Source: an uncultured Chloroflexia bacterium (GTDB lineage Bacteria > Chloroflexota > Limnocylindria > Limnocylindrales > CSP1-4). From it: a DNA stretch of 64,000 bases. Positions 6,575-63,741 of this stretch are shown here, one piece after another. A program made the translations under genes and the position numbers. Positions within the stretch are counted from its first letter, which is position 1. Each line of letters begins with the position of its first letter. The stretch is taken from the NCBI GenBank assembly GCA_963752475.1, contig CAVVYR010000006.1:448001-512000 (forward strand), in the 5' to 3' direction. The notes beneath the pieces are model-generated. The model saw only the letters and a program-made list of their open reading frames with translations, was not told the origin of the DNA and did no database searches.

Positions 6575-6601
6575 CCGCGGCTTCGTTGACGGACTCGAAC
6601 C

Positions 6602-8082: not shown

Positions 8083-8108
8083 CCAGGGTTCGCCACCGTC
8101 GCGGTGGG

Positions 8109-9017
8109 CTAGTACTCGGACAGTCGGGGCGGGTTCGCCGGCGGTTTGCGCCTCATCGCCGGCATGCGCTTGGCCTCGGTGTTCAGCACCGCCAGTGGGT
8201 CCACGCGCTCACGGGCGTAGAAGGGATAGCCCCTCAGCCGAGCCGACTCGTGGACGCGCATCATCGGGCCATCCATGCGTACCAGGCGGTAGCGCATCAT
8301 CTGCATGCCCTCGGCCTTGGCCATGTGCCCGATGGGCTGGCCGGCCTTGACCTTGTCGCCGGCCTTGACGAGGAGTTCCTTGATCTCGGTGTACACGCTG
8401 TAGTAGCCATTGCCATCGTCGACCACGAGGCCCTGCGGGAACCACGGCTTCTCCGACTTCTTGGCGGCCTTGGGGTCGTCGATCGGCGCATAGCGGCGGT
8501 AGACCCGATCGAGCGTCCCGTCGTAGCCGACGTGCTCGGCCCAGTCCCGACCCGCGGCCACGACGGTGCCCTTGTGCGCGGCCTTGACGATGGCGCCGTC
8601 GAACCAGGTGATGACGAGGCCGTCATGCATACGCTCGCCGGCGATCTGGAAGTCACCCTTGGGATGGGCTTGGTAGTAGCGCGCGACCATGCCGCCACGG
8701 ACGGGCCAGCGATAACCCCTGAGCTTGGTCGGCAGCTTCGAGGTGGGTTGTTCGAGCACGGCCGACCGGACCTCGGCGACGTCGAGTCCCTCGGCCGCTG
8801 CGGTGGTGTCTTCGGTGAGCGGCTCGTGGCCGGCGCCGATCGCGGGCTCGGCATATTGGGGAGTGGCGATGACGATGGCCAAGACGATCGCGATGACGGC
8901 CATGAGGAAGCCACCGGTCAGTAGCCCGGCAAGGGCATCACGGCGCGCCGAGGGGTCTGTTTGCTGGCCTACACGCGCCGAGGGCACGGACGTCGCTCGC
9001 AGGCCCCTATCTGCCAC
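8109..9017 (-). CDS. Membrane-anchored M23/LytM-domain protein with degenerate metal site
   Basis: YRWPVRG, HDGLVI, VKAAHKGTVVAAG, VKAGDKVKAGQPIG, VDPL; GTG start 9017 lies 7 nt after a TGcTAGAAT extended -10 (9025-9033). Confidence 0.78.
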   Translation of the reverse strand: MADRGLRATSVPSARVGQQTDPSARRDALAGLLTGGFLMAVIAIVLAIVIATPQYAEPAIGAGHEPLTEDTTAAAEGLDVAEVRSAVLEQPTSKLPTKLRGYRWPVRGGMVARYYQAHPKGDFQIAGERMHDGLVITWFDGAIVKAAHKGTVVAAGRDWAEHVGYDGTLDRVYRRYAPIDDPKAAKKSEKPWFPQGLVVDDGNGYYSVYTEIKELLVKAGDKVKAGQPIGHMAKAEGMQMMRYRLVRMDGPMMRVHESARLRGYPFYARERVDPLAVLNTEAKRMPAMRRKPPANPPRLSEY

Positions 9018-46612: not shown

Positions 46613-48112
46613 ATGCTGGAACGTTCACGGGAAGCGATGAAGCGCCTTCGGGGTGACCCGAGGGCGCCGTCGCCATCGCCGCGCAAACCCACCCGCGCGA
46701 CGCCGCCGAACGTGATCGGCAAAGGGCCCCTGTTGTCGGCGCCGGGCTTGAAGCTCGGCGTCGTCGTCATCCTGCGCAACGAGGGGCCGTATCTCGATGA
46801 GTGGCTCGCGTACCACCATGCCTTGGGCGTCGACCACTTCTTCATCTACGACAACGGCTCTACCGATGAGCTGCACGAGGTCATCGAGCCATGGGTCAAC
46901 CACGGCCTGGTCACGCTCGTGCACTGGCCGCTGCCCGGCGGTCAGATCGACGCCTACTCCCATGCGCTGCGCTTCTACGGCCCATCCGTCGGGTGGCTGG
47001 CGTTCTTCGACGTCGATGAGTTCGTGGTGCCGCTGGTCGACGACGATATCCCCTCGGTCCTGGCCCGGTTCCCCGACGCGGCCGATGTGCGCGTTCCACG
47101 CATCGACTTCGGCTTCTCCGGACATCGCGAACCGCCCGACCGACTGACGATCGAGTCCTACACCGAGGTGGCAGATGTCTTCGGGCGCGACGCGTCGAAG
47201 CCACCCCGGGTCAAGTCGATCGTGCAGCCGAAGTCGATCAGCGCTGTCGGCATCCACACCGCCACGGTGGCTGATGACCCACGCGGGCCCGACGGCGAGG
47301 CCGTGCCGCACAAGACCGTGGGCAAGTCCTGCTGGGGATTCGTGCAGCTGAACCACTACTACACGCGCTCGTTCGAGGAGTTCGAGTCCAAACGCTTCCG
47401 GGGGTCGGCCACGGGACGCATCGCCCGACCCGCCATCCCCTTCGACCTGCCGGCGCAGGGCGTGAACGATGCCGCGGTCCGCTTCACCGATCGGACGAAG
47501 GCCATGATCGAGCGCATCCACAGCCTGGCGCCCAGCCCGTACCGCTACGGCAGCGAGCTGGCGTTGGAGCGGTTCCCGCGCTTCAACGACCTCGGGCTCT
47601 TCACCGAGTTCGCTGTCGCCAACAGCGTGATGGAGGAGCCGGCACCACGACGCGAGCCGGCCCTGCGCATCCCCAACCTCTACGACGGCATCGGCTTCGT
47701 CGGCGTCGTCAGCGGACACGACCACGAGGTCGTCGAGGGTGAGCTCTCAGGCTCGATGCATCTGGAGCCGCTGCTGGAGCGAGCGCGCGGGCAGCTGGTA
47801 GGCACCCTCACCGATGCCGACGTCGTCGACGGCGAGGCGCGCTTCGACATCGACGCTGACGGTCAGCGACGGGTCTACGCCGCCGGTTTCGTGGTCACGA
47901 CCACCGCACCGACGAAGGTGGAGGCACTTCTGGTGCACGCAGACGGCAGTCGCAGCGAACCGGTCGAGCTGAAGCTCGATCCCGGACAGGCCTACGCTGG
48001 GCTCGTGGAGCTGGAACCCGAGCCCGACCTCGCCGAGACGGTGCGCATCCGTCTGGCATCGACCAGTGGCGAGATGGCCGTCCACGACCTCTTCGTCATC
48101 GCCTATGGCTGA
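46613..48112 (+). CDS. GT92/DUF23-like glycosyltransferase with extra C-terminal domain, paralog 1
   Basis: RNEGPYLDEWLAYH, FIYDNGSTD, FDVDEF, NHYYTRS. Confidence 0.8.
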   Translation: MLERSREAMKRLRGDPRAPSPSPRKPTRATPPNVIGKGPLLSAPGLKLGVVVILRNEGPYLDEWLAYHHALGVDHFFIYDNGSTDELHEVIEPWVNHGLVTLVHWPLPGGQIDAYSHALRFYGPSVGWLAFFDVDEFVVPLVDDDIPSVLARFPDAADVRVPRIDFGFSGHREPPDRLTIESYTEVADVFGRDASKPPRVKSIVQPKSISAVGIHTATVADDPRGPDGEAVPHKTVGKSCWGFVQLNHYYTRSFEEFESKRFRGSATGRIARPAIPFDLPAQGVNDAAVRFTDRTKAMIERIHSLAPSPYRYGSELALERFPRFNDLGLFTEFAVANSVMEEPAPRREPALRIPNLYDGIGFVGVVSGHDHEVVEGELSGSMHLEPLLERARGQLVGTLTDADVVDGEARFDIDADGQRRVYAAGFVVTTTAPTKVEALLVHADGSRSEPVELKLDPGQAYAGLVELEPEPDLAETVRIRLASTSGEMAVHDLFVIAYG

Positions 48113-49709
48113 GCCCACGCCGGCGGACAAGCTGCGTCGCCGCTTGAGCCGCCTCGTGTCCGGGACACCCGGGTCACCCGCTGCCCCGAAGGACGATGGG
48201 CGCAAGCGCAAGACGCCGGGCAAGATGCTGCGCGCCAAGCCACCCAACACTCGCGGCAGGGGACCGCTGCTCAGTGGGCCGCCGCTGGGCGTGGCTGTCG
48301 TGGCCATCGTCAAGAACGAGGCCGACTACCTCGAGGAGTGGCTGGCGTATCACCTCGCGCTGGGTGTCGACCACTTCGTCATCTACGACAACGGCAGCAC
48401 CGACGGCAGCGCCGAGCTGCTCGAGCGCTACATCAACCACGGCCTCGTCACGCGCATCGACTGGCCCATCGGGGGCGGTCAGTTGGCGGCCTACAACCAC
48501 TCCCTGCGGATGTTCGGCGCCGCCGCCCGTTGGCTGGCCTACTACGACCCTGACGAGTTCCTGGTGCCGCTGGCCGATGACGACATCCCCTCGTTCCTCG
48601 CGCGCTATCCCGACGCCGCGGTCCTGCGCGTGCCCCGCGTCGAGATCGGCTTCTCCGGCCACCGCACCAAGCCAGAGGGGCTGACCATCGACGAGTACAC
48701 CGGCGTGGCCGACGTGCTCGGGCTGGATCGGGATCTGCCACCGCGAGTGAAGTCGATCGTGCAGCCGGGTGCGGTCTCGGCCGTGGACATCCACCTGGCC
48801 TTCCCCGCTGACGTGCCCGAGCCGGGCCAGCCCACGAAGACGTACGAGGCCGAGCTGCGCGACGTGGTCCAGCTGAACCATTACTACACGCGCTCGTTCG
48901 AGGAGTTCGAGGCCAAGCGCTTCCGCGGTTCGGCGACCGGCCGCATCGCTCGCTCGGCCGTCGACTTCGATCTGCCCGTGCAGCGTGTCGACACCTCGGC
49001 CCAGCGTTTCTCCGAGCGGACGACGGCGATGTTCGAACGGCTGCGTCGACTTGACCCACGCCCGTACGAGTACGGCAGCCATATCGGCTTCGAGTACTTC
49101 CCGCGGCCCAACGACCTCTTCCGCTTCGGCGAGTTCGCCATCGCCAACTGGTCGGCTGGGCTGACCCAGCCCGCGCGCTCCGCGTCGACGCGGCTCAAGA
49201 ACCGCTACGACGGCGTCGGCCTGGTGGTGGACGTCACCGACCAGCCCGCGCAGCCGTGGCGAGACGCGCTCTCGTCCTCGTCGCACATCGAGGCCCTGCT
49301 GGGTCACATGCGTGGCCGCATCGTGAACGGGTTGACCAGCGCGCCCGATCTGCCCATCGCGGCGACGGCCGGCGAGCTCGAGCTACCCGTGGACGGCCCC
49401 GCCACCATCGGCCTGGTCGATGGCGCTGCCGAGCTGCTCATCCCACTGCCGTCGGATGCGATGCTCCGCTGCTATCACCTCGGGCTGCTGGCGAGCCTGG
49501 ACGGTGAGGCCTCGGCGGTCGCTTCGATCGAACGAAGGGAAGGCTCAGCGAGCACGCCCGTCGAACTGGGGTTGCCGGCAGGCTCGAGCGTCGCTGCCAT
49601 CGTGGAGGTCGAGCCGACGCCGAAGGAAGGGGACGTGATGCGGCTACGCTTCGAGTCCTCGGTGGACACGCTCACGCTCTACGACCTCTTCGTCATCGCG
49701 ACCGGCTAG
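48105..49709 (+). CDS. GT92/DUF23-like glycosyltransferase, paralog 2
   Basis: KNEADYLEEWLAYH, YDNGSTD, YDPDEF, NHYYTRS. Confidence 0.8.
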   Translation: MAEPTPADKLRRRLSRLVSGTPGSPAAPKDDGRKRKTPGKMLRAKPPNTRGRGPLLSGPPLGVAVVAIVKNEADYLEEWLAYHLALGVDHFVIYDNGSTDGSAELLERYINHGLVTRIDWPIGGGQLAAYNHSLRMFGAAARWLAYYDPDEFLVPLADDDIPSFLARYPDAAVLRVPRVEIGFSGHRTKPEGLTIDEYTGVADVLGLDRDLPPRVKSIVQPGAVSAVDIHLAFPADVPEPGQPTKTYEAELRDVVQLNHYYTRSFEEFEAKRFRGSATGRIARSAVDFDLPVQRVDTSAQRFSERTTAMFERLRRLDPRPYEYGSHIGFEYFPRPNDLFRFGEFAIANWSAGLTQPARSASTRLKNRYDGVGLVVDVTDQPAQPWRDALSSSSHIEALLGHMRGRIVNGLTSAPDLPIAATAGELELPVDGPATIGLVDGAAELLIPLPSDAMLRCYHLGLLASLDGEASAVASIERREGSASTPVELGLPAGSSVAAIVEVEPTPKEGDVMRLRFESSVDTLTLYDLFVIATG

Positions 49710-49718
49710 GCTGCAGCG

Positions 49719-51242
49719 ATGGCACTGAGCAAGCGCGTGGGCAAGGTCCTCGGTCGCAGCCCCGGCGAGGAGCGCAGGGAGCGTCCGCCGCTGATGGAGC
49801 GCGGCCGTTTCGATGTGTCCGTCATGGCCATCCTCAAGAACGAGGCACCGAACATGGAGGAGTGGCTTTGCCACCACATGGCCATCGGAGTCGACCACTT
49901 CTTCCTTTACGACAACGGCTCCACCGATGAGCTTCATGACGTGCTCAAGCCCTACGCCGACCACGGCGTCGTGACCACGATCTACTTCCCCATGCGCGGC
50001 CTGCAGCGCGACGCCAACAACCACGTCGTGCGCTTCTTCGGCGACACCACCGAGTGGATCGCCTATGTCGACATCGACGAGTTCCTGGTGCCCGAGCACG
50101 ACGAGTCCATCAGCGACGTCATGGCCCGCTACCCCGATGCCGAGCAGGTGCTCGTCTCACGCAAGGAGTTCTGCTACTCGGGGGTCCGCGAGCCCGTGGA
50201 CGGCCTGGTGACCGAGATCTATCGGGAGTACAGCGAGAACGTGCCGCGGATGGGTACGAGCGAGGTCCTGGCCAAACCCATCATCCGGCCCAGTGGGGCG
50301 GCTCGCGTGGGCATCCACAACGCCTTCACGGTCCATGGCCGCACGGTCAACACGGCGGGGCAGCCGACGAGCGAAGAGGCCACGGTCATCGAGGACCCGA
50401 GCTACGCCAACCTCCAGATGAACCACTACTTCACCAAGTCGTGGGCGGAGTTCCAGGCCAAGCGAACGCGTGCCACGACCTCGACCCATGCCTTCCAGCT
50501 GCCCGAGGTGCCCTTCGATATCCCCGGCCAAGTCGACCATGTCATCGATCGCTGGCAGCCGCGCACGCGGGCACTGATGGACGAGATGCGCACGCTGGCC
50601 CGCAGCCCGGCTCGTTACGGCAGCAAGCTGCGTATGCCCGGCTTCCCGATCAACGACATGTTCGGCCAGGAGGCCACGGCCATCACCTCCAACGAGGCCG
50701 CCGGTCTGACCGAAGCGCGCAAGAAGCGCTCCTTCCGCGGTCTGCCGATGCCCGGCGTGCGGGGTGCGCACGTGCGCGCCGAGGACCATGGCTACGAGCC
50801 CGCGCCGGGCCGCTTCCTCGCGTCCGAGCACATCGCCCAGGAGATGGCCTGGCTACAGGCCGAGGTCACATGGTCGGCACTCGAGCCCGAGCCGCCGCTG
50901 GGGGTCGAGGGCGGGACGCTCGAGGCCGATGAGGTCCCGGTGGTGCGGTTCGAGGGCGACCGTGGCTCGCTGGTGATCCCGACCGGGGGTGAGCCGCTTC
51001 GTCAGCATGCGCTGGCCTACGTCCTGCGCGTCGATGGCGCGGGGCCCGTCAGCGCGCAGCTGGCCGCCCGCGAGGGAGGGGAGTGGGTGCCGTCAGCGAC
51101 CTACGAGATGTCCGGTGCCGGCACCTATCTCGGTCTCGTGGCCCTGGAGAAGAAGCCGCGCACGGTCGACGCGGTGCGCATCTCGCTCGACGGCACGAGC
51201 GAGGTCACGATCTACGATCTGGCGCTGCTCGTCTTCGGCTGA
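49719..51242 (+). CDS. GT92/DUF23-like glycosyltransferase, paralog 3
   Basis: KNEAPNMEEWLCHH, YDNGSTD, VDIDEF, NHYFTKS. Confidence 0.8.
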   Translation: MALSKRVGKVLGRSPGEERRERPPLMERGRFDVSVMAILKNEAPNMEEWLCHHMAIGVDHFFLYDNGSTDELHDVLKPYADHGVVTTIYFPMRGLQRDANNHVVRFFGDTTEWIAYVDIDEFLVPEHDESISDVMARYPDAEQVLVSRKEFCYSGVREPVDGLVTEIYREYSENVPRMGTSEVLAKPIIRPSGAARVGIHNAFTVHGRTVNTAGQPTSEEATVIEDPSYANLQMNHYFTKSWAEFQAKRTRATTSTHAFQLPEVPFDIPGQVDHVIDRWQPRTRALMDEMRTLARSPARYGSKLRMPGFPINDMFGQEATAITSNEAAGLTEARKKRSFRGLPMPGVRGAHVRAEDHGYEPAPGRFLASEHIAQEMAWLQAEVTWSALEPEPPLGVEGGTLEADEVPVVRFEGDRGSLVIPTGGEPLRQHALAYVLRVDGAGPVSAQLAAREGGEWVPSATYEMSGAGTYLGLVALEKKPRTVDAVRISLDGTSEVTIYDLALLVFG

Positions 51243-51846: not shown

Positions 51847-52464
51847 ATGAGGCAGGAACGAAGCGCCAAGCGCCGCGAGCGCATCCTCGATGCGGCCTTC
51901 TCCGTCTTCAGCCAGCGCGGCTACCGACAGGCAGGCGTGGACGAGGTGGGGCGCCAGGCAGAGACCAGCAAAGGTGGCGTCTACTTCCACTTCCCCACCA
52001 AGGAAGCGTTGTTCCTCGAGCTGCTGCGTACCACCGCCGACCGGCTCACGGGCAAGGTCGAGCGGACCATCGCGCCGTACGACGACCCCATCGAGCGAGC
52101 GGACGTGGCACTCCAGACGGTACTCGGCGTCTTCGCCGGCCACCGCACGATGGCCAGGCTGTTCCTCATCGACGCGGTCGGTGCCGGTTCCGAGTTCCAG
52201 GCGGAGCTGCAGCGGCTCCACGAACGCTTCTCCGGCATCATCTCGCGTCAGTTGGACGCCGCGGTCGAGGCCGGCACCATCGAGTCCCTCGACACCGAGA
52301 TCGCGGGCATGGCCTGGTTCGGGGCGCTCAACGAGGTGGTCATGCGCTGGCTCATGGCCGACGACCCCGGGCGGCTGGAGGACACGTACCCCACGCTGCG
52401 GGGCATCCTCCTGCGCAGCGTCGGCATCCCCGAGGCGGGCATCGCGGCAACCGCCGAGGCATGA
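51847..52464 (+). CDS. TetR/AcrR family regulator, first gene of the men operon
   Basis: ILDAA..F..RGY, SKGGVYFHFPTKEAL; ATGA overlap with menF. Confidence 0.93.
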   Translation: MRQERSAKRRERILDAAFSVFSQRGYRQAGVDEVGRQAETSKGGVYFHFPTKEALFLELLRTTADRLTGKVERTIAPYDDPIERADVALQTVLGVFAGHRTMARLFLIDAVGAGSEFQAELQRLHERFSGIISRQLDAAVEAGTIESLDTEIAGMAWFGALNEVVMRWLMADDPGRLEDTYPTLRGILLRSVGIPEAGIAATAEA

Positions 52465-53873
52465 CCGTCGTGGAGCGGGCCGCCGCGCCCGACCTCGCGG
52501 CCGCGCTGACGCCGCTGATCGCTCGTGCGGCCGGCAGCGACCAGGCCACGCTGGTCTCGGCCACCGTGCCCGTGGCGCCAGTGGACCCGGTCGCCTTGCA
52601 CGGCATGGCCCAGCCATTGGGCGTGTCGCTGTGGATGCAGCCAGGAGCGGGCATCGCGCACGTCGGCGTCGGTGAAGCCTGGGCCGCTCGGCAGAGCCAT
52701 GAAGCCCGCTTCCAGGTCGTCTCGGTCGCCTGGCGGATGCTGCTCGAGAGCGCCGCCATCGACACCGGTGACGCTCCCCGGGGCGCCGGCCCTACGCTGC
52801 TGGGAGGGTTCGGCTTCGACGAGGATCCCGTCGAGTCGGAGGTCTGGAAGGGCTTCGAGGGGGGTTGTCTGACGCTGCCGGCTCTGCTGCTGTCCACGAC
52901 ATCGGAGGGTTCGTGGCTCACAGCTTCGATGGTCGTGGAGCCCGATGGCGTCCCGCCGGGCACGATGGTCCAGTCGCTGGACCAGACGTGGGCCTTCCTC
53001 TCCGAGGCGGCGGTGCAGCCCTCTGGGCTGGCACGACAGTCCCTGGCCGTCCGACGGCGAACCCCGGATGTCACGTCCTGGCAGAGCTCGGTGGCACGGC
53101 TGGCCGGGGCCGTCGGGCGTGGCCGGCTGGACAAGGCCGTGCTCTCGCGGTCGATCACGCTGGAGGCGGCCTCCGACATCGATGTCACCGGGGTCCTGCG
53201 TCGTCTCGAGGCCTCAGCGCCTGAGTCGACGGTCTTCGCCTTCTCACGCGGACCCCGCACGTTCGTCGGCGCTACGCCCGAACGGCTCGTCAGCCTGCAG
53301 GGTCGGGAGTTGCGCACGATGGCCATGGCCGGGTCAGCCCGCCGCGCGGACGATCCGGCAGAGGACGCGATGCTGGCCGAGCGACTCCTCGCCAGCGATA
53401 AGGAGCGCGAGGAGCATGCGGTCGTGGTCGACATGTTGCGGGAGGCGCTGGCGCCGGTGGCGCAGGGGCTGACCATCCCGCGGATACCGGAGGTCGTGCG
53501 CTTCCGTCACGTCCAGCACCTGGTCACGCCCGTGTCCGGCCGGCTCGTCGATGATGCCGATGTGCTCACGCTCGTCGAGCGCCTCCATCCCACACCCGCG
53601 GTCGGCGGTACGCCTCGCGATCTGGCGCTCGAGCTCATCGCCGAGGAAGAGCCCCACGAGCGTGGATGGTATGCCGGCCCGGTGGGCTGGATGGACCGCA
53701 ATGGCGATGGTGAGTTCGTCGTGGCCCTCCGCTCAGGCGTCATCGCGGGCGCCACGGCCACGCTCTTCGCCGGCTGCGGCATCGTCGCCGACTCCGATCC
53801 GGAGCGGGAATGGGACGAATCGAGCGCCAAGCTGCAGGCTCTCGGCTCCGCGCTCGGACGGTTCGAGCCATGA
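52461..53873 (+). CDS. menF: Isochorismate synthase
   Basis: KAVLSR, GATPERL, KEREEH, LHPTPAVGG, RGWYAG, AGCGIV. Confidence 0.93.
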   Translation: MTVVERAAAPDLAAALTPLIARAAGSDQATLVSATVPVAPVDPVALHGMAQPLGVSLWMQPGAGIAHVGVGEAWAARQSHEARFQVVSVAWRMLLESAAIDTGDAPRGAGPTLLGGFGFDEDPVESEVWKGFEGGCLTLPALLLSTTSEGSWLTASMVVEPDGVPPGTMVQSLDQTWAFLSEAAVQPSGLARQSLAVRRRTPDVTSWQSSVARLAGAVGRGRLDKAVLSRSITLEAASDIDVTGVLRRLEASAPESTVFAFSRGPRTFVGATPERLVSLQGRELRTMAMAGSARRADDPAEDAMLAERLLASDKEREEHAVVVDMLREALAPVAQGLTIPRIPEVVRFRHVQHLVTPVSGRLVDDADVLTLVERLHPTPAVGGTPRDLALELIAEEEPHERGWYAGPVGWMDRNGDGEFVVALRSGVIAGATATLFAGCGIVADSDPEREWDESSAKLQALGSALGRFEP

Positions 53874-55627
53874 CCGGCTACCGCACACCCGCGGCGCCCC
53901 TCCGTGCCATCGTCGAGACGCTCATCGCTGGCGGTGTGCGCGACGTCGTGATCTGCCCGGGCTCGCGCTCGACGCCCATGGCCCTGGCGCTCAAGGCTGC
54001 GCCGCAGCTGCGTTGCTGGGTGCACCTCGACGAGCGCGCCGGTGCCTTCTTCGCGCTGGGCGCGGCCAGAGGCGGACGTCGTCCGTCGGCGATCCTGGCC
54101 ACTTCCGGCACGGCCGTCGTCAACTTCGCACCGGCGGTGGCCGAGGCCCGCTACGGTCGCGTACCGCTGATCGTGCTGACGGCCGACCGACCGCCTGAGC
54201 TGCAGGGCATCGGCGCACCCCAGACCATCGACCAGATCGAGCTCTACGGCCGCCATGCCAAGTGGTTCGCCGAGTTGCCTGTGCCGGCTGACGACCCTGA
54301 CGCCGAGGCCGAGCTGCGCGGAACGGTCGCCCGCGGCCTCGATGTCGCGACCAGGGCCCCAGCGGGGCCGGTCCAGCTCAACCTGCCCTTCCGGGAGCCC
54401 TTGCTACCCGATGGATCGCTGGTCGCGGACGATGCCGCTACCGAGGCGGATCCACGGCCGCGGATCGAGGCCGCGGCCATCGACCCGGAGCTCATCGAGC
54501 GCCTGCTGCCGCGCGTCCATGCCGCGGCGCGCCCGCTCGTCGTCTGCGGCCCGCTCGACCGACCCGGCTTCGCGTCACCGGTCACCGAGCTCGCGGCGGC
54601 GTTGCGGGCGCCGATCGTGGCCGATGCGCTCGCCAACCTGCGCTGCGGGCCCCACGATCGCGAGGCCATCGTCGCGTACCACGACGCCCTGCTGCGCATC
54701 CCGGGCTTCAGCGAGCGTCAGGCCCCGGACCTCATCCTCCGCTTCGGCGGCACGCCGACATCGAAGGCCCTGAACCAGGCCCTCGAGCGATGGGACGCAC
54801 CGCAGCTCCTCGTCGACGACGGGGAGGGCTGGAACGTGCCCGCCGGCGAGGCCATCGAGCGTCTCGATGCCGAACCCGTGGCCTTCGTCGAGGCGCTGGC
54901 GGATGCCGCCCGGGGGGAGGGCTCGGGCGACCCGGCATTCCTGGACGCGTGGCTCGCGGCTGATGCGGTCGCGGCCACGGCACTAGCGCAGTTCCACGCC
55001 GCAGCTGCCGAACCGTTCGAGGGAGCTGTGGCTCCCGCGCTCGACGCCGCGCTACCGGATGACGCGCTCGTGCTCGTGGGCAACAGCATGCCGGTGCGGG
55101 ACCTCGACACCTTCCTGCCCGGATCGAAGCGGCCGCGCCGCCTCCTCGGCAACCGCGGTGCCAACGGCATCGACGGGCTCATCGCTTCCGCGCTCGGGCT
55201 GGCCGCCGGGCAACCCCACCCGGTCGTGCTCGTCCTCGGCGACCTCAGCTTCCTGCACGACCTGACCTCGCTCGTGGCCGCGCAGCGACTCGGGCTCGAG
55301 CTGCTGATCGTGCTCGTCGACAACGACGGTGGCGGCATCTTCTCGTTCCTGCCGCAGGGCTCGGCCGAGCGTCCAGACCTGGGCCTTCCGGAGCACTACG
55401 AGGAGCTCTTCGGCACACCGCACGGGCTCGACCTGCGACCGATCGCGACCGCCCTCGGTGCGACACATCGACGCGTGGGCGGCGGCGACCTCGCTCGGGG
55501 CATCGCAGCGTGCCTGGAGCGACCGGGCGTGACGGTGCTCGAGGTGAACACCGATCGGACACGCAACGTCGAGCTCCACGGCGAGGCCTTCGCGGCGGTC
55601 GAGCGTGCGCTGGAGGCCCACGTATGA
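53870..55627 (+). CDS. menD: SEPHCHC synthase
   Basis: PGSRSTP, DERAGAF, TSGTA, ADRPPE, NRGANGIDG, GDLSFLHD, NDGGGIF. Confidence 0.97.
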   Translation: MTGYRTPAAPLRAIVETLIAGGVRDVVICPGSRSTPMALALKAAPQLRCWVHLDERAGAFFALGAARGGRRPSAILATSGTAVVNFAPAVAEARYGRVPLIVLTADRPPELQGIGAPQTIDQIELYGRHAKWFAELPVPADDPDAEAELRGTVARGLDVATRAPAGPVQLNLPFREPLLPDGSLVADDAATEADPRPRIEAAAIDPELIERLLPRVHAAARPLVVCGPLDRPGFASPVTELAAALRAPIVADALANLRCGPHDREAIVAYHDALLRIPGFSERQAPDLILRFGGTPTSKALNQALERWDAPQLLVDDGEGWNVPAGEAIERLDAEPVAFVEALADAARGEGSGDPAFLDAWLAADAVAATALAQFHAAAAEPFEGAVAPALDAALPDDALVLVGNSMPVRDLDTFLPGSKRPRRLLGNRGANGIDGLIASALGLAAGQPHPVVLVLGDLSFLHDLTSLVAAQRLGLELLIVLVDNDGGGIFSFLPQGSAERPDLGLPEHYEELFGTPHGLDLRPIATALGATHRRVGGGDLARGIAACLERPGVTVLEVNTDRTRNVELHGEAFAAVERALEAHV

Positions 55628-56424
55628 GCCTCAACGTCCTCACCGAAGGCAGCGGTCAGCCGCTGCTCCTGCTCCACGGCTTCACTGGCACCGCACGCAT
55701 GTGGTCGTCGCAGATCGAGGCGTGGTCGGCCGACCACCGCGTCATCGCACCCGACCTGCTCGGTCACGGCCGCTCTGATGCCCCAGCCGAGCCTGTCCAC
55801 TACGCCCTCGAGCGTCAGGCCGCTTCACTGGCGGACCTGCTGGCCCTGCTCGAGGCGGAGCCGGCGACGGTGGTCGGCTACTCGATGGGTGCCCGACTCG
55901 CGCTCGTGCTGGCACTGGAGTACCCGCGGTCGGTGGCGCGGCTCGTGCTCGAGAGTCCCTCGGCCGGGATCGTCGATGACGCCGATCGAAACGCACGCCG
56001 AGTGGCGGACGAGCACCTCGCGCAGGAGATCGTGCGCGACGGCACCGATGCCTTCATCGCACGGTGGGAGGCGATGCCGATCTTCGCCAGCCACGTGGAT
56101 CTACCGGCCGACGTCGAGTCTCACCAACGCGCCGAGCGTCGCCGGCACACGCCGACCGGCCTGGCAGGCTCGCTGCGTGGAGCAGGGCAGGGGGCCATGG
56201 CGCCGATGCACGACCGGCTCCGGCACGTCACCTCGCCCACGCTCGTCGTCGCCGGCGTGCTCGACACGGCCGGCGCTGGTCGCGCGAAGGTCGTCGCCAC
56301 GGGCATCCCGCATGCCCGTCTCGAGATCATCGACCGTGCCGGCCACACGCCACACCTGGAGCGGCCCCAGACGTTCATCCGCGTCGTCGACGACTTCCTG
56401 ACCAGCAGCCCCGTCACAGCCTGA
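55624..56424 (+). CDS. menH: SHCHC synthase
   Basis: [18 protein letters not shown]...D, G.LD, AGH; position after menD. Confidence 0.9.
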
Positions 56425-56432
56425 GGAGAGCC

Positions 56433-57254
56433 ATGCCCACCGACTGGATCAGCGCCCACGACTACGAAGACATCCGCTACGAGCACTCGGGCACCGGTAT
56501 CGCCAAGATCACCATCGACCGCCAGCATGTGCGCAACGCGTTCCGGCCGGAGACCGTGACCGAGCTCATCGACGCCTTTGGGCGCGCCCGCGACGACGCC
56601 GAGATCGGCGTGGTGCTGCTGACGGGCGCCGGCGACAAGGCGTTCTGCTCGGGTGGCGACATGAACGTCAAGACCGAGGCCGGCTATGCCGACCACGAAG
56701 GCGTGGCCCGGCTGAACGTGCTGGACCTCCAGCGCCAGATCCGATCGCTGCCCAAGGTCGTCATCGCTCTCGTCAACGGCTACGCGGTCGGCGGTGGGCA
56801 CGTGCTCCACGTGGTCTGCGACCTCTCGATCGCCTCGGACAACGCGGTCTTCGGCCAGACCGGACCCAAGGTCGGCAGCTTCGACGGCGGCTACGGTGCG
56901 ACCATGCTGGCCCGCATCGTGGGCCACAAGAAAGCCCGCGAGATCTGGTACCTGTGCCGCCAGTACACCGCTGCGGAAGCGCTGGACATGGGCCTCGTCA
57001 ACACCGTCGTGCCCCTCGAGCAGCTCGATGACGAGGGTGTGCAGTGGGCCGAGGAGATCCTCGACAAGAGCCCCACCGCCATCCGCATGCTCAAGCGCTC
57101 GTTCAACGCTGATGTCGACGGGCTCGCCGGCATCCAGGAGCTCGCCGGCGATGCCACGATGCTCTTCTATCAGACGCCGGAGGCCCACGAGGGCAGCCAG
57201 GCCTTCCTCGAGAAGCGCAAGCCGAACTACCGCAAGTACCCGCGGCGCCCGTGA
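56433..57254 (+). CDS. menB: 1,4-dihydroxy-2-naphthoyl-CoA synthase
   Basis: [31 protein letters not shown]. Confidence 0.97.
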
Positions 57255-57261
57255 AGACCGC

Positions 57262-58194
57262 ATGACGAACCCCACCGCCGAGACCGGCGGAGCATCCGTT
57301 CCGGTGAGCCGCTCCCGGGCCTGGCTCGTGGCCATCCGTCCGGCCACGCTCCCTGCCGCGATCGGCCCGGTGCTGGTCGGCTTGGCCGTGGCCGTCAGCC
57401 TCGGCGTCTTCGCGCCGCTACCGGCGGCAGCGGCGCTGGCCGTGGCACTGCTGCTGCAGGTCGCCTCCAACGTCGCCAACGACCTCTCGGACTTCCGCTC
57501 CGGCGTGGACACCGAGGAGCGTCTGGGACCGCCACGAGCCGCCGCCTCGGGACTGCTCAGCGAACGTGAGCTGCTGGCCGGCCTGGCCGTGATCGTCGGC
57601 CTGGCCGGACTGGTCGGTCTGTACCTGGTATCGGTCGGCGGGCTGGTCATCCTCGTGCTCGGGGTCGCCGCGATCATCAGCGCCTTCGCCTACAGCGGCG
57701 GGCCATGGCCGTACGGCTACCACGGGCTGGGCGAGGTCTTCGTCTTCGTCTTCTTCGGACTCGTGGCGGTAGCCGGCACGACGTACCTGCAGACCTCGTC
57801 GTGGGAGCCGCTGGCCTTCGCCGCGGCCATCCCGGTCGGCTCGCTCATCACAGCCATCCTCGTGATCAACAACGTGCGCGATATCGACACCGACACGGTC
57901 ACAGGAAAGCGCACCCTGGCGGTCATCCTCGGCGAGCGCGCCGCGGTGGCCGAGTACGACCTGCTCATCGGCGTGGCCTATGCCATCCCCGTGGGGCTGC
58001 TGATCGCGGGCGACGTCACCTGGACCGTGCTGCTGCCGCTGGCCAGCCTGCCCCTGACGGTCGCCCTCTTCCGCGTCGTCCATGCCGGCGGCGACCCGCG
58101 GCGCCTCAACCCCGTGTTGCGCGAGACGGCGCGCCTCTCGCTCATCTACTGCGTGCTCTTCGCGGCGGGTCTCGCACTCGGGGGGCTCGTCTGA
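57262..58194 (+). CDS. menA: DHNA polyprenyltransferase
   Basis: RPATL, NVANDLSD..GVD, YSGGP, GLGE, NNVRDIDTD..GKRTL. Confidence 0.95.
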   Translation: MTNPTAETGGASVPVSRSRAWLVAIRPATLPAAIGPVLVGLAVAVSLGVFAPLPAAAALAVALLLQVASNVANDLSDFRSGVDTEERLGPPRAAASGLLSERELLAGLAVIVGLAGLVGLYLVSVGGLVILVLGVAAIISAFAYSGGPWPYGYHGLGEVFVFVFFGLVAVAGTTYLQTSSWEPLAFAAAIPVGSLITAILVINNVRDIDTDTVTGKRTLAVILGERAAVAEYDLLIGVAYAIPVGLLIAGDVTWTVLLPLASLPLTVALFRVVHAGGDPRRLNPVLRETARLSLIYCVLFAAGLALGGLV

Positions 58195-59288
58195 TGCGGA
58201 TCGTCCGCGTCGAGGTCGCGACCCTCGAGGTGCCCTTCCGTGAGCCCATCATCAGTGGCACGCAGCGCTGGGAGCACCACCGTGCGGGCATCCTCGTCCT
58301 GCGCACCGACGACGGCCGCAAGGGCCTCGCCGAGTTCCCCGCGCCGCGTCCACATGACCTCGGTGAGGACGTGTCGCCCAGGCTCATCGAGTTGCTCACG
58401 GGCATCGAGCTATCCGACCCGGTCACGGTCGAGGGCACGTTGCGAGACATCGACACCTGGCCCTTCGTCGGCCGAGCTGCGAGGTCGGCGGTCGAGTCCG
58501 CGCTGATCGACCTGCTGGCGCGCGTGAACCGGCAGTCCATCGCCGCCTACCTCGACAGCCAGGCCGCCCCGGATGTGCCGCTCAACGCGATGCTGGGCAT
58601 GGATCAGCCCGAAGAGACGGCGTCACAGGCGGCCGCCCTGGTCGAGGGTGGCTTCCGCTGCCTCAAGCTCAAGGCCGGAGAGGAGCCGGATGGGTCGCTC
58701 GAAGCCCGCGTCGCTGCCGTCCGCGAGGCGGTGGGGCCGGACGTGGCGCTGCGTCTCGACTTCAACGGCAGCCTCAGCGCCGACTGGGCCTCGGAGGTGT
58801 TGGCGAAGGTCGCGCCGTTCGACATCGAGTACGCCGAGCAGCCGATCCCGCCGGGTGCCGGTGCCGAAGCGCTGGCGCGGCTGCGCTGGACCGGTAGTGT
58901 GCCCATCGCGGCCGATGAGTCGGTCCGTGATCTCGGTTCGGCTCGCATCCTGCTCGATACCGGAGCCGTGGACGCGCTGATCGTGAAGCCGGCGCGCGTC
59001 GGTGGCCTGCGTCAGGCACACGCGATCGTCGAGCTGGCCGCGACCGCCGGGGTGCCGGTGACGGTCTCGACGCTGTTCGAGACCGGTGTGGGCCTGGCAG
59101 GAGCCTTGCATCTGGCTGCCACCGCGCCGGGCTCGCAGGCGCATGGCCTTGCCACCGCGGACCTGCTCGAGTCGGACCTGCTGAGTTCGCCACTCGCGAT
59201 CAGCCGAGGCCGGATGGCGGTTCCGGAGGGCACCGGTCTGGGTGTCGACCTCGACCCCGCATCACTCGAGCGGTATCGCATCCGGTGA
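58194..59288 (+). CDS. menC: o-succinylbenzoate synthase
   Basis: Enolase superfamily motifs KLK, RLDFN, EQP, ADES, VKP; operon context. Confidence 0.9.
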   Translation: MRIVRVEVATLEVPFREPIISGTQRWEHHRAGILVLRTDDGRKGLAEFPAPRPHDLGEDVSPRLIELLTGIELSDPVTVEGTLRDIDTWPFVGRAARSAVESALIDLLARVNRQSIAAYLDSQAAPDVPLNAMLGMDQPEETASQAAALVEGGFRCLKLKAGEEPDGSLEARVAAVREAVGPDVALRLDFNGSLSADWASEVLAKVAPFDIEYAEQPIPPGAGAEALARLRWTGSVPIAADESVRDLGSARILLDTGAVDALIVKPARVGGLRQAHAIVELAATAGVPVTVSTLFETGVGLAGALHLAATAPGSQAHGLATADLLESDLLSSPLAISRGRMAVPEGTGLGVDLDPASLERYRIR

Positions 59289-61504
59289 CGCTCGCTCCCG
59301 ATCCGCTGCTCGAGCGGATCCGTCAGGACCCCGATGCGCCGGCCGTGGCGGCTCGCGCCGCGACGTGGACCCGGGCCCAACTGCTGGATGCAGCCGACGA
59401 GCTGGCGTTGGCGCTGCACGCGGAGCGGCTCGGTGAGGGGCGTCGCATCGCCTGCCTGCTCGATGACGATGCCCCCGCGGTCGCGCTCATCCATGCCGCA
59501 CGTCGGCAGGGCGCGGTGCACATCCCACTGAACCGCCGGGCGAGCGTGCCTGAGCTGCGTGACCAGCTCGTGGTCTCCGCCGCCGACGGTCTGCTGTGCG
59601 ACAAGGCCAACGAGGGCAAGGCCCGCAAGGCTGCTCCCGAGGGCATGGCCACGCATCGCATCGAAGCCCTTCTGGCTGGGGTCCCGTGTGCCTTGCCGCC
59701 GACGCTGCGCGACAGGATCGACCTGGACGCTCCGGCCACGGTCGTCTTCACCTCGGGCACGACCGGGCGGCCGAAGGGCGCCGTCCTGACCCACGACAAC
59801 CACCGTGCCAGCGCCCACGCCTGGGCCGCCCTGCTGCGACCGCAGCCCGCTGACCGCTGGCTGCTCTGCGTGCCGCTCTTCCACGTGGCCGGCTTGGCGA
59901 TCGTCACGCGAGCCACTCGCTGGGGTGCCGCCCTCGATGTCCTCGACCGCTTCGATCCGACCATCGTGAGCGCGCGACTCGAGGATGGCGTGACGCATCT
60001 CTCGCTCGTGGCCGCGCAGCTGCTCGCGCTGCTCGACGAACGCGAGGACCGCCCGGTGCCGTCGTCGCTACGCGGGATCCTGCTCGGAGGTGGCCCCGTC
60101 CCGTCCGATCTGCTGACTCGTGCCCGTGCCGCCGGCTATCCCGTGTTGACGACCTACGGTCTGACCGAGACCGGCTCCGGTGTGGCCAGCGGTGGTGGCG
60201 ACCAAGCCACGCTCGACGACCCGACCGCCGGTCAGGCGCTGCCCGGAGTGGAACTGCGGATCGCCGACGATGGCGAGATCCTCGTGCGCGGCGAGATGGT
60301 CTTCAGCGGCTACCTCGGAGACGATGCAGCCACGGCGCGGGCGTTGCCCGGAGACGGCTGGCTCCACACCGGTGACTTCGGAAGCCTCGATGCGGACGGA
60401 CTGCTGCGCGTGAGCGCGAGGCGCCACGATCTCATCATCAGCGGCGGCGAGAACATCACCCCGGCTGAGATCGAAGCGGTGTTGGAGTCCCATCCGGGCA
60501 TCGGCGAGGCCGTGGTCATCGGCGTGCCGCACGAGCGCTGGGGCGCGGTACCACGGGCCTACGTCGTGCCGACCGGCAGCACCGGGCCGACAGACGACGC
60601 GCTGAAGGCCTACTGCCGCGACCGACTGGCGACCTACAAGGTGCCTGCGGACTTCGTGCGCGTGCGGGAGCTGCCGCGCAACGCCATGGGCAAGGTCGCG
60701 CGCGCGGAGCTGGGCGACGTCACCGGGACGGGCCGCTCGATGCCGTCCGTGCACCGCGACCGTCAAGGTGATGGTCCACCGCTGCTCCTGCTGCACTCGA
60801 CGCTGTCGTCCTCTCGGCAGCTGCGATCGCTGGCGACTCGGCTGGCCGAACACCACACCGTCGTCAGCATCGACCGGCTGGGCAGTGGTCGCTCCACCTT
60901 CGATGGCCCGGCGGTGCCGATCCCCGTCACGAAGCACATCGAGGACCTGGCTCAGGTCCTCGCCGCGGAACGGCTCGGGCCCGTCGCGGTGGTCGGCCAC
61001 AGCTTCGGTGGCTGCATCGCCATCGAGCTGGCCTCGCAGCGCCCGGAGCTGGTGAGTGCGGTCTTCGCCTACGAGCCGCCCTATGCGTCGGTGGCGTCGC
61101 CGGAGGTCCAGGCTGGCATGGCCGAGGTCGGCCGTCGAACGCTGGCAGCGCGAGACCAGAACGGACTCGGCGCCGCGGCGCTGACCTTCATGAAGGGCGT
61201 CTCTGGTGCCGATGCAGTGGCTGCCTTGAGCCCCGGGGCCCGTCGACGTGTGGAGCAGGCCGGGCAGGGAGCCGTCGCGGATGCCACCCTTGCGGGCATG
61301 GAACCCGACGCTCTCGAACGGATCGGCTGCCCTGTGCGTATCGCCACCGGCGCTGCCAGCGCGCCCTTCTACACCGAGATCGCCGAGGTGCTGGCCGCTC
61401 GCATCCCCGTGGCCGACCACGTCCGGCTCCCGGGTCTCGAGCACATGGCCCCCGTGCTGCGTCCGGACGCTGTCGCGGATGCCATCGAGGACTTCCTCAC
61501 ATGA
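59285..61504 (+). CDS. menE: OSB-CoA ligase fused to a C-terminal Ser alpha/beta-hydrolase domain
   Basis: FTSGTTGRPKG, YGLTET, LHTGD, NAMGK in residues 1-480; then GHSFGG, YEPP, LEHMAP in residues 486-739. Confidence 0.88.
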   Translation: MTLAPDPLLERIRQDPDAPAVAARAATWTRAQLLDAADELALALHAERLGEGRRIACLLDDDAPAVALIHAARRQGAVHIPLNRRASVPELRDQLVVSAADGLLCDKANEGKARKAAPEGMATHRIEALLAGVPCALPPTLRDRIDLDAPATVVFTSGTTGRPKGAVLTHDNHRASAHAWAALLRPQPADRWLLCVPLFHVAGLAIVTRATRWGAALDVLDRFDPTIVSARLEDGVTHLSLVAAQLLALLDEREDRPVPSSLRGILLGGGPVPSDLLTRARAAGYPVLTTYGLTETGSGVASGGGDQATLDDPTAGQALPGVELRIADDGEILVRGEMVFSGYLGDDAATARALPGDGWLHTGDFGSLDADGLLRVSARRHDLIISGGENITPAEIEAVLESHPGIGEAVVIGVPHERWGAVPRAYVVPTGSTGPTDDALKAYCRDRLATYKVPADFVRVRELPRNAMGKVARAELGDVTGTGRSMPSVHRDRQGDGPPLLLLHSTLSSSRQLRSLATRLAEHHTVVSIDRLGSGRSTFDGPAVPIPVTKHIEDLAQVLAAERLGPVAVVGHSFGGCIAIELASQRPELVSAVFAYEPPYASVASPEVQAGMAEVGRRTLAARDQNGLGAAALTFMKGVSGADAVAALSPGARRRVEQAGQGAVADATLAGMEPDALERIGCPVRIATGAASAPFYTEIAEVLAARIPVADHVRLPGLEHMAPVLRPDAVADAIEDFLT

Positions 61505-62223
61505 GCCGGGGCAACAGCGCGCCGCCACAGAAGGTGGAGGAGATGTTCGACCGTATCTCCGGCGTCTATGACGGCATGAACCTGGCCATCAGCGGCTTCC
61601 AGGAGCCGCGCTGGCGCAAGCGCATCATCCAAGCCAGCGGCGTCGGTCCTGGTGACGCTGCGCTCGACGTGGCCTGCGGCACCGGCAAGGTCACGACGGA
61701 CCTCTTCAGGGCGGCACAGCCCGGCGGCACCGCCTTGGGCATCGACTTCAGCGCAGGCATGATCGAGGTCGCCAACGAGCACCGGCCCGTCGAGCTCGAA
61801 GGGCTCAGCTTCGAGCAGGGCGATGCGCTCGAGTTGCCCGTCGAGGACGATACGTTCGACGCGGCCACCATCGCCTACGGCATGCGCAACCTCGCCGACT
61901 ACCGCGGGGGCTTCGTCGAGATGGCGCGCGCGGTGCGGCCCGGCGGCAAGGTCGTGTGTTTCGAGATCCACACGCCCACGAGCGCCTTCGGGCGGCTGGT
62001 GGCGCTGTGGTTCGACCACGTCGTGCCCATCATCGGCAGGCTGGTGGGCCAGGGGGACGCCTACGGCTATCTCGCCAACTCGGTGAAGGACTACCCCGCG
62101 CCGGAGCGCATCGCAGAGATCATGCGCGACGCGGGCCTCGAGAGCGTCGACTGGCAGGGTTTCATGGGCGGGATCGTCGCGCTCCACGTTGGCACCGTCC
62201 CGGCGCCGAGCGACGACCCCTAG
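61501..62223 (+). CDS. menG: Demethylmenaquinone methyltransferase (UbiE/MenG)
   Basis: MFDRI..YD.MN, LDVACGTG, AYGMRN, Y.YL..S. Confidence 0.93.
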   Translation: MSRGNSAPPQKVEEMFDRISGVYDGMNLAISGFQEPRWRKRIIQASGVGPGDAALDVACGTGKVTTDLFRAAQPGGTALGIDFSAGMIEVANEHRPVELEGLSFEQGDALELPVEDDTFDAATIAYGMRNLADYRGGFVEMARAVRPGGKVVCFEIHTPTSAFGRLVALWFDHVVPIIGRLVGQGDAYGYLANSVKDYPAPERIAEIMRDAGLESVDWQGFMGGIVALHVGTVPAPSDDP

Positions 62224-62256: not shown

Positions 62257-63741
62257 CTAGCTCCGAACCTCGAACGCGGGCGCGACCTCGACCTTGAGCT
62301 CAGCCAGCTCTGCGGATAGAGCGTCGGCCAGCGCCTCCGTCTCGGCCGAGGGCTGTCCCGCGAGCAGGTTCTCCATCTGGCAGGGGTCGCCAGGCGAGCC
62401 TTCGGCCCACTCGTAGCAGAGGCCACCGCTGATGTCGTAGAGCTCGCGGAAGCCGCCGCGGTTCTCGATGTAGTGCCAGCGCCCGTCGGGATGGTCGGCG
62501 GTGGTCCGGATCGACCACCACACGGGTCTGTCGCCACCCGACGGCACCGTATGCAGCAGTGACTCGCGCACGGTCGGCAGCTCCTCGTCCGCCAACACCG
62601 ACGCGAACGACAGCCCGTCGGCTGTCTCCTGGCCGTTGGGATACGGACCCATCTCGCAGCCGGCCAGATCGCAGAAGGTGGGCGCGAAGTCGATCATCGA
62701 GAGCGTGGTCGCGTCATCACGCGCCTCAACCCCCCGACCGGCCGGCCAGGCCACGTAGGCCGGCATCGGCGTCGCGTACGGCGAGACCTTGGCCACGCGA
62801 CGGTGTTCACCCCAGGTCATGCCGTTGTCGGCGATGAAGACGAAGACGGTGTCGTCGAGTCGGCCCTCCTTCTCCAGCGTGCGCCCGACCCGGCCGATCA
62901 TCTCGTCCACCGAGAGCAGTGACTCGCAGTGCGCGGTGAGATCGAAGCCCTTGTCGCCGAGCGGCTCGAGCTTCTGGACATGGGCCGGCTTGTCCGAGAC
63001 ATCCGCCTCGTCGTAGTTCGGCGGCGCCCACGGCTCGAGGTCCGCACAGCGCTCGTCGCCTTCGTGTCGGGGCGCCGGCAGGTTGGGCTCGTGCGGCGTG
63101 TAGGGCGCGATGAGCGCGAACAGCGGCGCGTCATCGGGCGCCTGTCTGATGCGCTTGACCGCGATATCGGCGATGACGTCCGTCGAGTAGTCGTCCTCGT
63201 CGGTCTTGTGCTGGGAGATGTTCCCGTCGCGGTCACGGATCTGGTACCAGAAGTACTTGCCCTGGTTGCTGTTGATGACGTCGAAGTCGTTCCAGCCGGG
63301 CGGGTCGTACTGCGCAGGCGCAAACTTCTTGTAGCCGTTCAGATATTTGCCCACGTAGGCGGTGTGATAGCCGGCGTCATCGAGCTCGGTGGCGATGGTC
63401 GTGGACACGTCGAGCTGGGAGCCATTGTTGCTGTTGGCACCGCTGTTGTGGGCATGCTGCCCGGTGAGCAGGTTGGCGCGCGACGGTCCGCACAGCGGGA
63501 CCTCTCCGTGGAAGTCGGTGAAGCGGACCCCACGGCTGATGACGAGGTCGTGCAGCTCCGGCATGACCTCGGACGACCACAGCCGTCCGTCGTGCGGGTT
63601 GGCGTCGTCGAGCATGACCACGACGATGTTCGGCCGCGGTGGTTCGGCCGCCTCCGCCTGGGCGGCGACCCCGGGCCCGAGGGAGCCCAGGAGCAGGGGA
63701 GCGAGGGCCGCGGAGCCCGCGCAGCGGATGAGTCGGTTCAC
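62257..63741 (-). CDS. Secreted S1 (formylglycine-type) sulfatase
   Basis: Signal peptide, PNIVVVMLDD, CGPSR, GKYLN, PH, ADNG. Confidence 0.9.
   Translation of the reverse strand: MNRLIRCAGSAALAPLLLGSLGPGVAAQAEAAEPPRPNIVVVMLDDANPHDGRLWSSEVMPELHDLVISRGVRFTDFHGEVPLCGPSRANLLTGQHAHNSGANSNNGSQLDVSTTIATELDDAGYHTAYVGKYLNGYKKFAPAQYDPPGWNDFDVINSNQGKYFWYQIRDRDGNISQHKTDEDDYSTDVIADIAVKRIRQAPDDAPLFALIAPYTPHEPNLPAPRHEGDERCADLEPWAPPNYDEADVSDKPAHVQKLEPLGDKGFDLTAHCESLLSVDEMIGRVGRTLEKEGRLDDTVFVFIADNGMTWGEHRRVAKVSPYATPMPAYVAWPAGRGVEARDDATTLSMIDFAPTFCDLAGCEMGPYPNGQETADGLSFASVLADEELPTVRESLLHTVPSGGDRPVWWSIRTTADHPDGRWHYIENRGGFRELYDISGGLCYEWAEGSPGDPCQMENLLAGQPSAETEALADALSAELAELKVEVAPAFEVRS

Follow-up and report, generated by a model that had tools for sequence, protein, structure and literature searches.

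A MenE-hydrolase fusion in the menaquinone operon of an uncultured Limnocylindria bacterium: a candidate DHNA-CoA thioesterase of the alpha/beta-hydrolase fold

The DNA studied here is a stretch of 64,000 nucleotides (the window) from an uncultured bacterium of the Limnocylindria (Chloroflexota; contig CAVVYR010000006.1, positions 448,001 to 512,000), and its element of interest is a fusion protein of the menaquinone (men) operon, in which the o-succinylbenzoate (OSB)-CoA ligase MenE is continued by an alpha/beta-hydrolase (ABH). The gene order of the operon is TetR-menF-menD-menH-menB-menA-menC-menE::ABH-menG. As shown by the listing of open reading frames (ORFs) and its translation, one uninterrupted ORF, which begins with GTG and spans positions 59285-61504 of the window on the + strand, encodes the 739 aa of the fusion. 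The MenE domain covers residues 1-478 (59285..60718, +) and is a member of TIGR01923 (350.1 bits for a cut-off of 330.15, aa 31-476 covered), with matches to both Pfam AMP-binding and AMP-binding_C inside it. It is followed by a linker predicted to be disordered (residues 478-487, …LGDVTGTGRSMP…; 60716..60745, +). In the AlphaFold2 model of the full-length protein (mean predicted local distance difference test score, pLDDT, of 89) both domains are confident and only this linker falls below a pLDDT of 50, which indicates that residues 478-487 are a short flexible tether between MenE and the hydrolase. The hydrolase domain, as delimited by Pfam and AlphaFold2, has 254 aa (residues 486-739, from Met486 at nt 60740; 60740..61504, +).

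The domain matches Pfam Abhydrolase_6 (60.7 bits) and Abhydrolase_1 (55.6 bits) above their cut-offs over residues ~498-733, and its isolated AlphaFold2 model (pLDDT 97.4) has the fold of the alpha/beta-hydrolase superfamily, a central sheet with a helical lid. It also carries the G-x-S-x-G nucleophile elbow and the catalytic histidine expected of that superfamily: Ser573, the nucleophile, lies in GHSFGG (codon 61001..61003, +) and His720 in LEHMAP (codon 61442..61444, +). The site after strand beta7 where the acid is usually found reads GAAS in this domain, with no Asp. Two other acids are candidates, namely Glu597 of the YEPPY motif, after strand beta6 (codon 61073..61075, +), and Asp666, which is 98% conserved. 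Ser573, Glu597 and His720 are each invariant in the 175/175 aligned domains of the family, as well as in 36/36 fused proteins, and Glu597 is the likely catalytic acid. An acid placed after beta6 is the arrangement of the haloalkane dehalogenases. Judged by its sequence, the hydrolase domain would be catalytically intact, and the three motifs are those that the initial annotation had pointed out (GHSFGG, YEPP and LEHMAP). Matches to the hotdog families PF03061, PF13279 and NF047424 were absent from the fusion protein, which sets it apart from hotdog-fold MenI, and its match to Pfam Thioesterase (PF00975), restricted to aa 499-585, stays below the gathering cut-off (25.6 bits against 26.4).

The other genes of the operon, all on the + strand, were assigned from family models, and menF, menD, menH, menB, menA, menE and menG each exceed an NCBIfam cut-off. 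They are menF, isochorismate synthase (52461..53873; TIGR00543, 327.9 bits against a cut-off of 224.75); menD, synthase of 2-succinyl-5-enolpyruvyl-6-hydroxy-3-cyclohexene-1-carboxylate (SEPHCHC; 53810..55627; TIGR00173, 438.5 against 244.2), whose true start is probably later than the start of the ORF; menH, the canonical synthase of 2-succinyl-6-hydroxy-2,4-cyclohexadiene-1-carboxylate (SHCHC; 55510..56424; TIGR03695, 216.3 against 208.55), with an uncertain start and a family match from near nt 55657; menB, 1,4-dihydroxy-2-naphthoyl (DHNA)-CoA synthase (56433..57254; TIGR01929, 427.5 against 342.7), listed as an ORF from 56064 with the family match starting at aa 124; menA, DHNA polyprenyltransferase (57301..58194; NF004751, 321.3 against 264), listed from 56794; and menG/ubiE, demethylmenaquinone methyltransferase (61501..62223; TIGR01934, 199.8 against 158.35). 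The assignment of menC, OSB synthase (58191..59288), depends on a Pfam MR_MLE_C match of 178 bits and on the position in the operon, the NCBIfam models for this enzyme matching below their cut-offs only. The stop codon of menC and the start of menE overlap in GTGA, and the stop of the hydrolase overlaps the ATG of menG in ATGA. When the entire genome was searched in six frames with PF03061 and PF13279, the window gave no hotdog match. The hydrolysis of DHNA-CoA (EC 3.1.2.28) is the sole canonical step without a gene in the operon.

At its head the operon carries a gene for a regulator of the TetR family (51847..52464, +; Pfam TetR_N and TetR_C_24). A TetR homologue lies directly 5' of menF in nearly all men operons of the Limnocylindria and in many of other Chloroflexota families (L110-L172, L205, L206, L207, L209, L212, L213, L217 and L220), and it may be a conserved regulator of the pathway. 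Just upstream of the operon, at 46613-51242, are three tandem paralogous glycosyltransferase genes (Glyco_transf_92 / GT2; 499, 547 and 507 aa), and directly after menG a gene of the sulfatase family on the opposite strand (62257-63741, -) marks the end of the operon.

Among 1.84 billion representatives scanned with HMMER, the family of the hydrolase domain comprises only 42 clusters at E<=1e-30, below which the matches drop to generic hydrolases. In a scan restricted to one genome per species over all prokaryotes, 80 loci were recovered, 65 from Chloroflexota and 15 from other phyla. All of the Chloroflexota loci (65/65) lie in a men cluster, the hydrolase stands directly after menE in 62/62 of those where menE is covered, and the order TetR-menFDHBACE-hydrolase-menG is found in all 65 to the extent that their contigs cover it. 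The 15 look-alikes from other phyla (27-37% identity) have no adjoining men operon; in one of them (L188) there is only a weak match to an acyl-CoA ligase, ~8 kb away. The genomes being related and the genes linked, these counts measure a restriction to the men context and not independent events, and some of the genome tallies, among them that of the 401 genomes below, include a few unpublished genomes, none of which serves individually as evidence. The family to which the hydrolase domain belongs is small and confined to the position immediately behind menE.

The same association was seen in a class-level sample of 401 genomes, in which an orthologue was defined by a score of >150 bits and MenB by E<=1e-60: 56 genomes have the orthologue, 63 have MenB and 55 have both. 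The only orthologue without MenB is that of G197, where the operon is complete and both menB and the hydrolase are broken; at this locus (L075 / L169) three frames are needed to read menB and two to read the hydrolase, through either assembly indels or decay of the operon. The eight genomes with MenB and without the hydrolase could be resolved. Two (G403 and G184) hold sub-threshold crotonases with no men genes nearby and were not counted, and the contig of G309 ends inside menE and is uninformative. Five (G157, G180, G353, G061 and G295) have real men operons, in which the hydrolase is dispensable. In G157, G180 and G353 menG is missing from the end of the operon together with the hydrolase. 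In two of these genomes menC and menE stand in one frame, of 872 aa in L066 (G157; 5895-8513) and 882 aa in L067 (G180; 6363-9011), possibly as a MenC-MenE fusion with which the operon ends. Frames of >1000 aa, considered as MenC-MenE-hydrolase triple fusions, were rejected, since long open frames arise by chance in GC-rich DNA and menC and menE are in different frames at the loci checked.

Two further cases were noted. In L074 (G081), from another family (f4), a men operon holds a hydrolase that the family profile scores at 369.5 bits, a value surpassed by the window's own genome alone, which suggests a gene transfer or a mis-binned contig. In family f63 (G657:C1:137224, G678:C1:1670202 and G713:C20:421448) a hydrolase with 130-134 bits on this profile lies at a constant distance of ~20 kb from menB on the opposite strand, outside the operon.

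Fused and split forms of the two genes both occur. Fusions are seen in the more distant relatives: about 34 database proteins of 670-842 aa carry both domains, and among the 65 Chloroflexota loci of the species-representative scan 46 are fused, 15 have the hydrolase in a separate frame, one has both genes in a single frame interrupted by a stop, two lie at a contig edge and one is undetermined. The closest relatives of the window are split, with stand-alone hydrolases of 253-269 aa and 51-79% identity; in seven congeners (G013, G014, G009, G021, G010, G001 and G004) menE stops where the hydrolase gene, which is in another frame, begins. Fused forms are widespread in the family tree and basal to it, and the window lies inside a sub-clade of split forms (L110, L112 and L114), so that its own fusion looks secondary. 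Since both states occur, both seem to be functional.

A separate canonical menH, already recognised by the initial annotation, is present in the window (216.3 bits, see above), with the signature GYSMGAR and S. aureus MenH (2xmz, E 2.4e-38) as its best sequence match in the PDB. It shares fold and operon with the hydrolase domain at ~29% identity, and on TIGR03695 the latter reaches only 43.2 bits for the cut-off of 208.55, outside the family. Residues given as invariant in MenH are Ser86, His232, Asp210, Tyr85, Arg90, Arg124, Asp128, Trp147, Arg168 and Lys212 (passages of PMC3630204). In all the post-menE hydrolases the position of Tyr85 is held by His, Val or Ile and that of Arg90 by Cys, Val or Ala; the residue after their elbow, G-[HVIQL]-S-[FY]-G-[GA], is non-basic, and E-P-P comes after strand beta6. 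The GYSxGxR signature was found in 24/27 of the operon MenH, the pattern script giving no match or a wrong one for L135, L204 and L220. The hydrolase domain thus has the EPP motif, unlike MenH, and neither the Tyr-Ser + Arg(+4) signature nor an Asp behind beta7. A grouping of the domain with MenH, which the initial annotation had named as an outcome that would overturn its proposal, was not obtained: in a quick tree (IQ-TREE, LG+G4, 63 rows, alignment pieces of >=170 residues) the 27 MenH form one clade (Shimodaira-Hasegawa-like approximate likelihood ratio test, SH-aLRT, 95) and 19 Limnocylindria hydrolases, including that of the window, form another (SH-aLRT 95). Canonical MenH and the hydrolase occur together in 45/51 loci that cover this region.

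Elsewhere in the phylum, 20 men operons of other Chloroflexota families and two found by profile were sampled. Three operons of this sample (L203, L220 and L221; families f67, f82 and f52) have a separate EPP-type hydrolase directly after menE together with a canonical MenH. These three hydrolases form a clade of their own (SH-aLRT 100), and the approximately unbiased (AU) test did not reject uniting them with the Limnocylindria hydrolase clade (p 0.233). With one origin or two, menE is repeatedly associated with a hydrolase that is not MenH.

Taken together, the sequence and its genomic context identify the C-terminal domain as a putative Ser-His-Glu hydrolase that is dedicated to menaquinone synthesis and distinct from MenH. 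The initial annotation had proposed that this domain replaces a missing MenI. Among the hotdog genes of the window's own genome, which is 88.8% complete, are a single YbgC-like one, whose 160-aa product carries an Asp/His motif, a FabZ and a split gene resembling acyl-ACP thioesterases. The YbgC-like protein stays below the cut-offs of TIGR00051 (55.7 against 68.7) and MenI_Staph (32.9 against 225), and a hotdog of the PaaI/YdiI type was not found by six-frame searches of this 88.8% complete genome. The split gene (G000:C7:386571-387014; L004 and L005), which resembles a double-hotdog acyl-ACP thioesterase, runs over two frames, possibly through a frameshift or an assembly indel. The operon is indeed devoid of a hotdog gene; the genome as a whole encodes a hotdog of the YbgC class, so that MenI may not be missing from it. 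In a survey of one genome from each of 15 genera with the men pathway and of 15 genomes from 15 genera without it, the YbgC-like protein was present in 9/15 and 12/15 respectively and does not follow the pathway; six of the genomes with the pathway, 90-96% complete, do without it.

The anticorrelation between hydrolase and hotdog thioesterase expected under a replacement was not seen in genus g6, where a YciA-like protein and a second 4HBT protein occur both in the two hydrolase-less genomes (G157 and G180) and in 5/5 genomes with the hydrolase. In the 20 operons of other Chloroflexota families, a 4HBT gene was found inside one only (L207), Pfam having been run on the 61/139 candidate ORFs that lie within the clusters or next to them. 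Operons of the pathway in this phylum are therefore usually without MenI, whether the hydrolase is present or not. The exception (L207, G511; 6832-8026) has the order menF-D-B-E-menH-4HBT and is the only sampled operon with an internal hotdog thioesterase, which is likely MenI.

Because no canonical step other than the hydrolysis of DHNA-CoA is left unassigned and the hydrolase is linked to a CoA ligase, we tentatively favour, at somewhat less than an even chance, that the hydrolase domain hydrolyses DHNA-CoA, the product of MenB, to DHNA and CoA, and so would be an analogue of MenI built on another fold, with a substrate that we infer. The invariant catalytic residues, the exclusive men context, the distinctness from MenH, the second clade of post-menE hydrolases and the YbgC-like protein that does not follow the pathway also speak for this reading. 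Ser573 would attack the thioester of DHNA-CoA, with His720 acting as the base and Glu597 as the acid; the oxyanion hole would be formed by the backbone NH groups adjoining His504 and Ser573, and the DHNA-enzyme ester would then be hydrolysed. The tether of 10 residues, or translational coupling if the genes are split, could keep the CoA-consuming and the CoA-releasing enzymes in equal amounts. Of the replacement proposed at first, a hydrolase that is real, intact in sequence, different from MenH, tied to the men genes and set in an operon without a hotdog gene has stood; the absence of MenI and the anticorrelation have found no support.

Several results weigh against DHNA-CoA as the substrate. 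The fusion partner is MenE and not MenB, so that ligase and hydrolase would serve steps that do not follow one another. The YbgC/4HBT-class hotdog of the window's own genome belongs to the superfamily of S. aureus MenI, hydrolase and hotdog thioesterases coexist in g6, and five men operons dispense with the hydrolase. The PF00975 match does not discriminate, the window's own MenH obtaining 25.1 bits. The structural ranking is flat, both with Foldseek pdb and with VIA, where the 50 best matches span Z 27.1 to 23.9, and takes in XhpG, the enol-lactonase 2xua (Z 26.3), esterases, Rv0554, RutD, S. aureus MenH (Z 24.2) and E. coli MenH (Z 24.0), as well as aryl esterases and C-C hydrolases, all within ~3 Z units; in the ESM Atlas only generic alpha/beta-hydrolase clusters were matched. 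Nothing in these sequence and fold comparisons favours thioesters over esters or lactones. The prediction of a complex between MenB and the hydrolase domain gave a score of 0.00 ('no answer'), which speaks neither for nor against binding.

Several other explanations were weighed. The covalent link could be an assembly error, the genes being truly separate as in the closest relatives of 54-79% identity, with their menE stop at the start of a hydrolase gene in another frame; the frameshifted look of the C7 gene of the same assembly goes in the same direction. The continuous frame described by the initial annotation, MenE running into a 254-aa hydrolase, is however bridged at the junction (60700-60760) with 0 gaps by three Logan contigs from runs X1, X2 and X5 of two studies. 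The X1 contig has 1263 nt and 6 substitutions, the X2 contig 220 nt, and the X5 contig, from the second study, 167 nt and 5 substitutions, none of which makes a stop. Run X1 may be the source sample and is then not independent, runs X3 and X5 carry mostly relatives, and one of the contigs comes from a slightly different strain. The alternative frame at the junction has no stop either. We therefore consider such an error very improbable, and even if true it would change the covalent link only, not the membership of the hydrolase in the operon. A second or replacement SHCHC synthase, with a MenH-like activity, is suggested by four genomes of one clade (G421-G424; L156, L160, L164 and L166) in which menD is directly followed by menB while the fused hydrolase is kept, a finding that also counts against DHNA-CoA hydrolysis; TIGR03695 gives <=52.3 bits over these genomes and 217.9 in the control G425, although the completeness of G421-G424 is not given. 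In addition, a true MenH stands after menE in two other Chloroflexota operons (L207 and L213). Against this activity, the hydrolase has no equivalents of the MenH-invariant Tyr85, Arg90 and Asp210, its TIGR03695 score is far below the cut-off, it coexists with canonical MenH in most of the covered loci, and the hydrolases of the four MenH-less genomes nest inside the hydrolase clade. Moreover, SEPHCHC decays spontaneously to SHCHC (passages of PMC3097144), so that a loss of MenH needs no replacement. A MenH-like role thus appears improbable, less strongly so than an assembly error.

Two alternatives concern the substrate. In one of them the domain would be an esterase of metabolite repair: according to a passage of PMC6210188, unstable OSB-CoA turns into the OSB spirodilactone in vitro at physiological pH, and the recycling of this lactone would need an esterase that has not been identified. 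The domain would reopen the lactone to OSB, to be re-activated by the fused MenE. The product of the hydrolase would then be the substrate of MenE and the fusion would join consecutive steps. The best NCBIfam scores of the domain, on 3-oxoadipate enol-lactonases (78.5, 71.8 and 65.4 bits, all far below cut-offs), and the place of 2xua among the tied top structural neighbours are in agreement with a lactonase. This likeness is nevertheless unspecific, as the window's MenH scores 110 bits on the same models and the structural ranking is flat; a spirodilactone esterase is known from no organism, so that there is no family for comparison, and the DHNA-CoA step would be left without an operon gene. 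We hold repair to be rather unlikely, although it is a serious rival of DHNA-CoA hydrolysis; if true, it would represent a built-in damage-repair cycle and would explain why MenE rather than MenB is the partner. The other alternative is a different role linked to menE, such as the editing of wrong acyl-CoAs or acyl-adenylates or an esterase activity on a compound foreign to the canonical pathway. Broad-specificity esterases among the fold neighbours, the dispensability of the hydrolase in five men operons and its joint loss with menG from the operon end in G157, G180 and G353 would fit such a role. The strict position after menE in >60 species and the fusion to MenE favour a pathway-specific function instead, and no result suggests a specific alternative substrate. 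We judge this role unlikely as well, if a little less so than repair.

The hydrolysis of DHNA-CoA was the last classical step of menaquinone synthesis to gain an enzyme. In the passages of the literature cited here the enzymes of this step are all of the hotdog fold, and many genomes are still without a convincing candidate. With either outcome, an alpha/beta-fold DHNA-CoA thioesterase or a spirodilactone repair esterase, a textbook vitamin pathway would gain an enzyme and Chloroflexota genomes could be annotated better. The significance is bounded by a function inferred from context in uncultured organisms, and specialists would not be surprised to see a thioesterase replaced by a non-orthologous enzyme.

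Among known proteins, the best solved relative of the domain is an uncharacterised, unfused alpha/beta hydrolase of Sphaerobacter thermophilus (PDB 3r0v; E 1.2e-14, 30% identity), which shares the FEPPYA motif and superposes with Z 27.1 and a root-mean-square deviation of 2.7 over 244 residues. Rv0554/BpoC of Mycobacterium tuberculosis is among the tied top fold matches; it is a stand-alone protein without a fusion to MenE, it is not among the 60 best sequence matches in the PDB and it has no specific sequence relation to the hydrolase domain. Its gene lies in the mycobacterial men cluster. Passages of PMC3097144 report that Rv0554 is without SEPHCHC activity and that MenH was formerly annotated as a thioesterase. 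A literature search on menaquinone in Limnocylindria and on DHNA-CoA thioesterases of the hydrolase fold returned no paper on a MenE-hydrolase fusion, and the main-text passages of PMC4746308 describe none. The same passages predict MenJ and MenY, the latter fused to MenI, as non-orthologous men enzymes of gut bacteria; the logic is alike, with pathway holes filled from operon and fusion evidence, and the folds (HAD and a hypothetical protein) and taxa are others. The usual DHNA-CoA thioesterases, as given in passages of PMC4746308 (where Widhalm 2009 and Chen 2013 are the references for MenI) and PMC8918352, are the hotdog-fold MenI/YdiI of E. coli, Slr0204 of Synechocystis and MenI of S. aureus and Listeria, that of S. 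aureus being of hotdog class I (PMC8918352). The hydrolase domain would have in common with these enzymes the pathway and the proposed reaction, DHNA-CoA to DHNA and CoA. It would differ from them in chemistry and architecture, with a putative Ser-His-Glu triad, a covalent acyl-enzyme and a fusion to MenE in place of the Asp/Glu general base of hotdog MenI.

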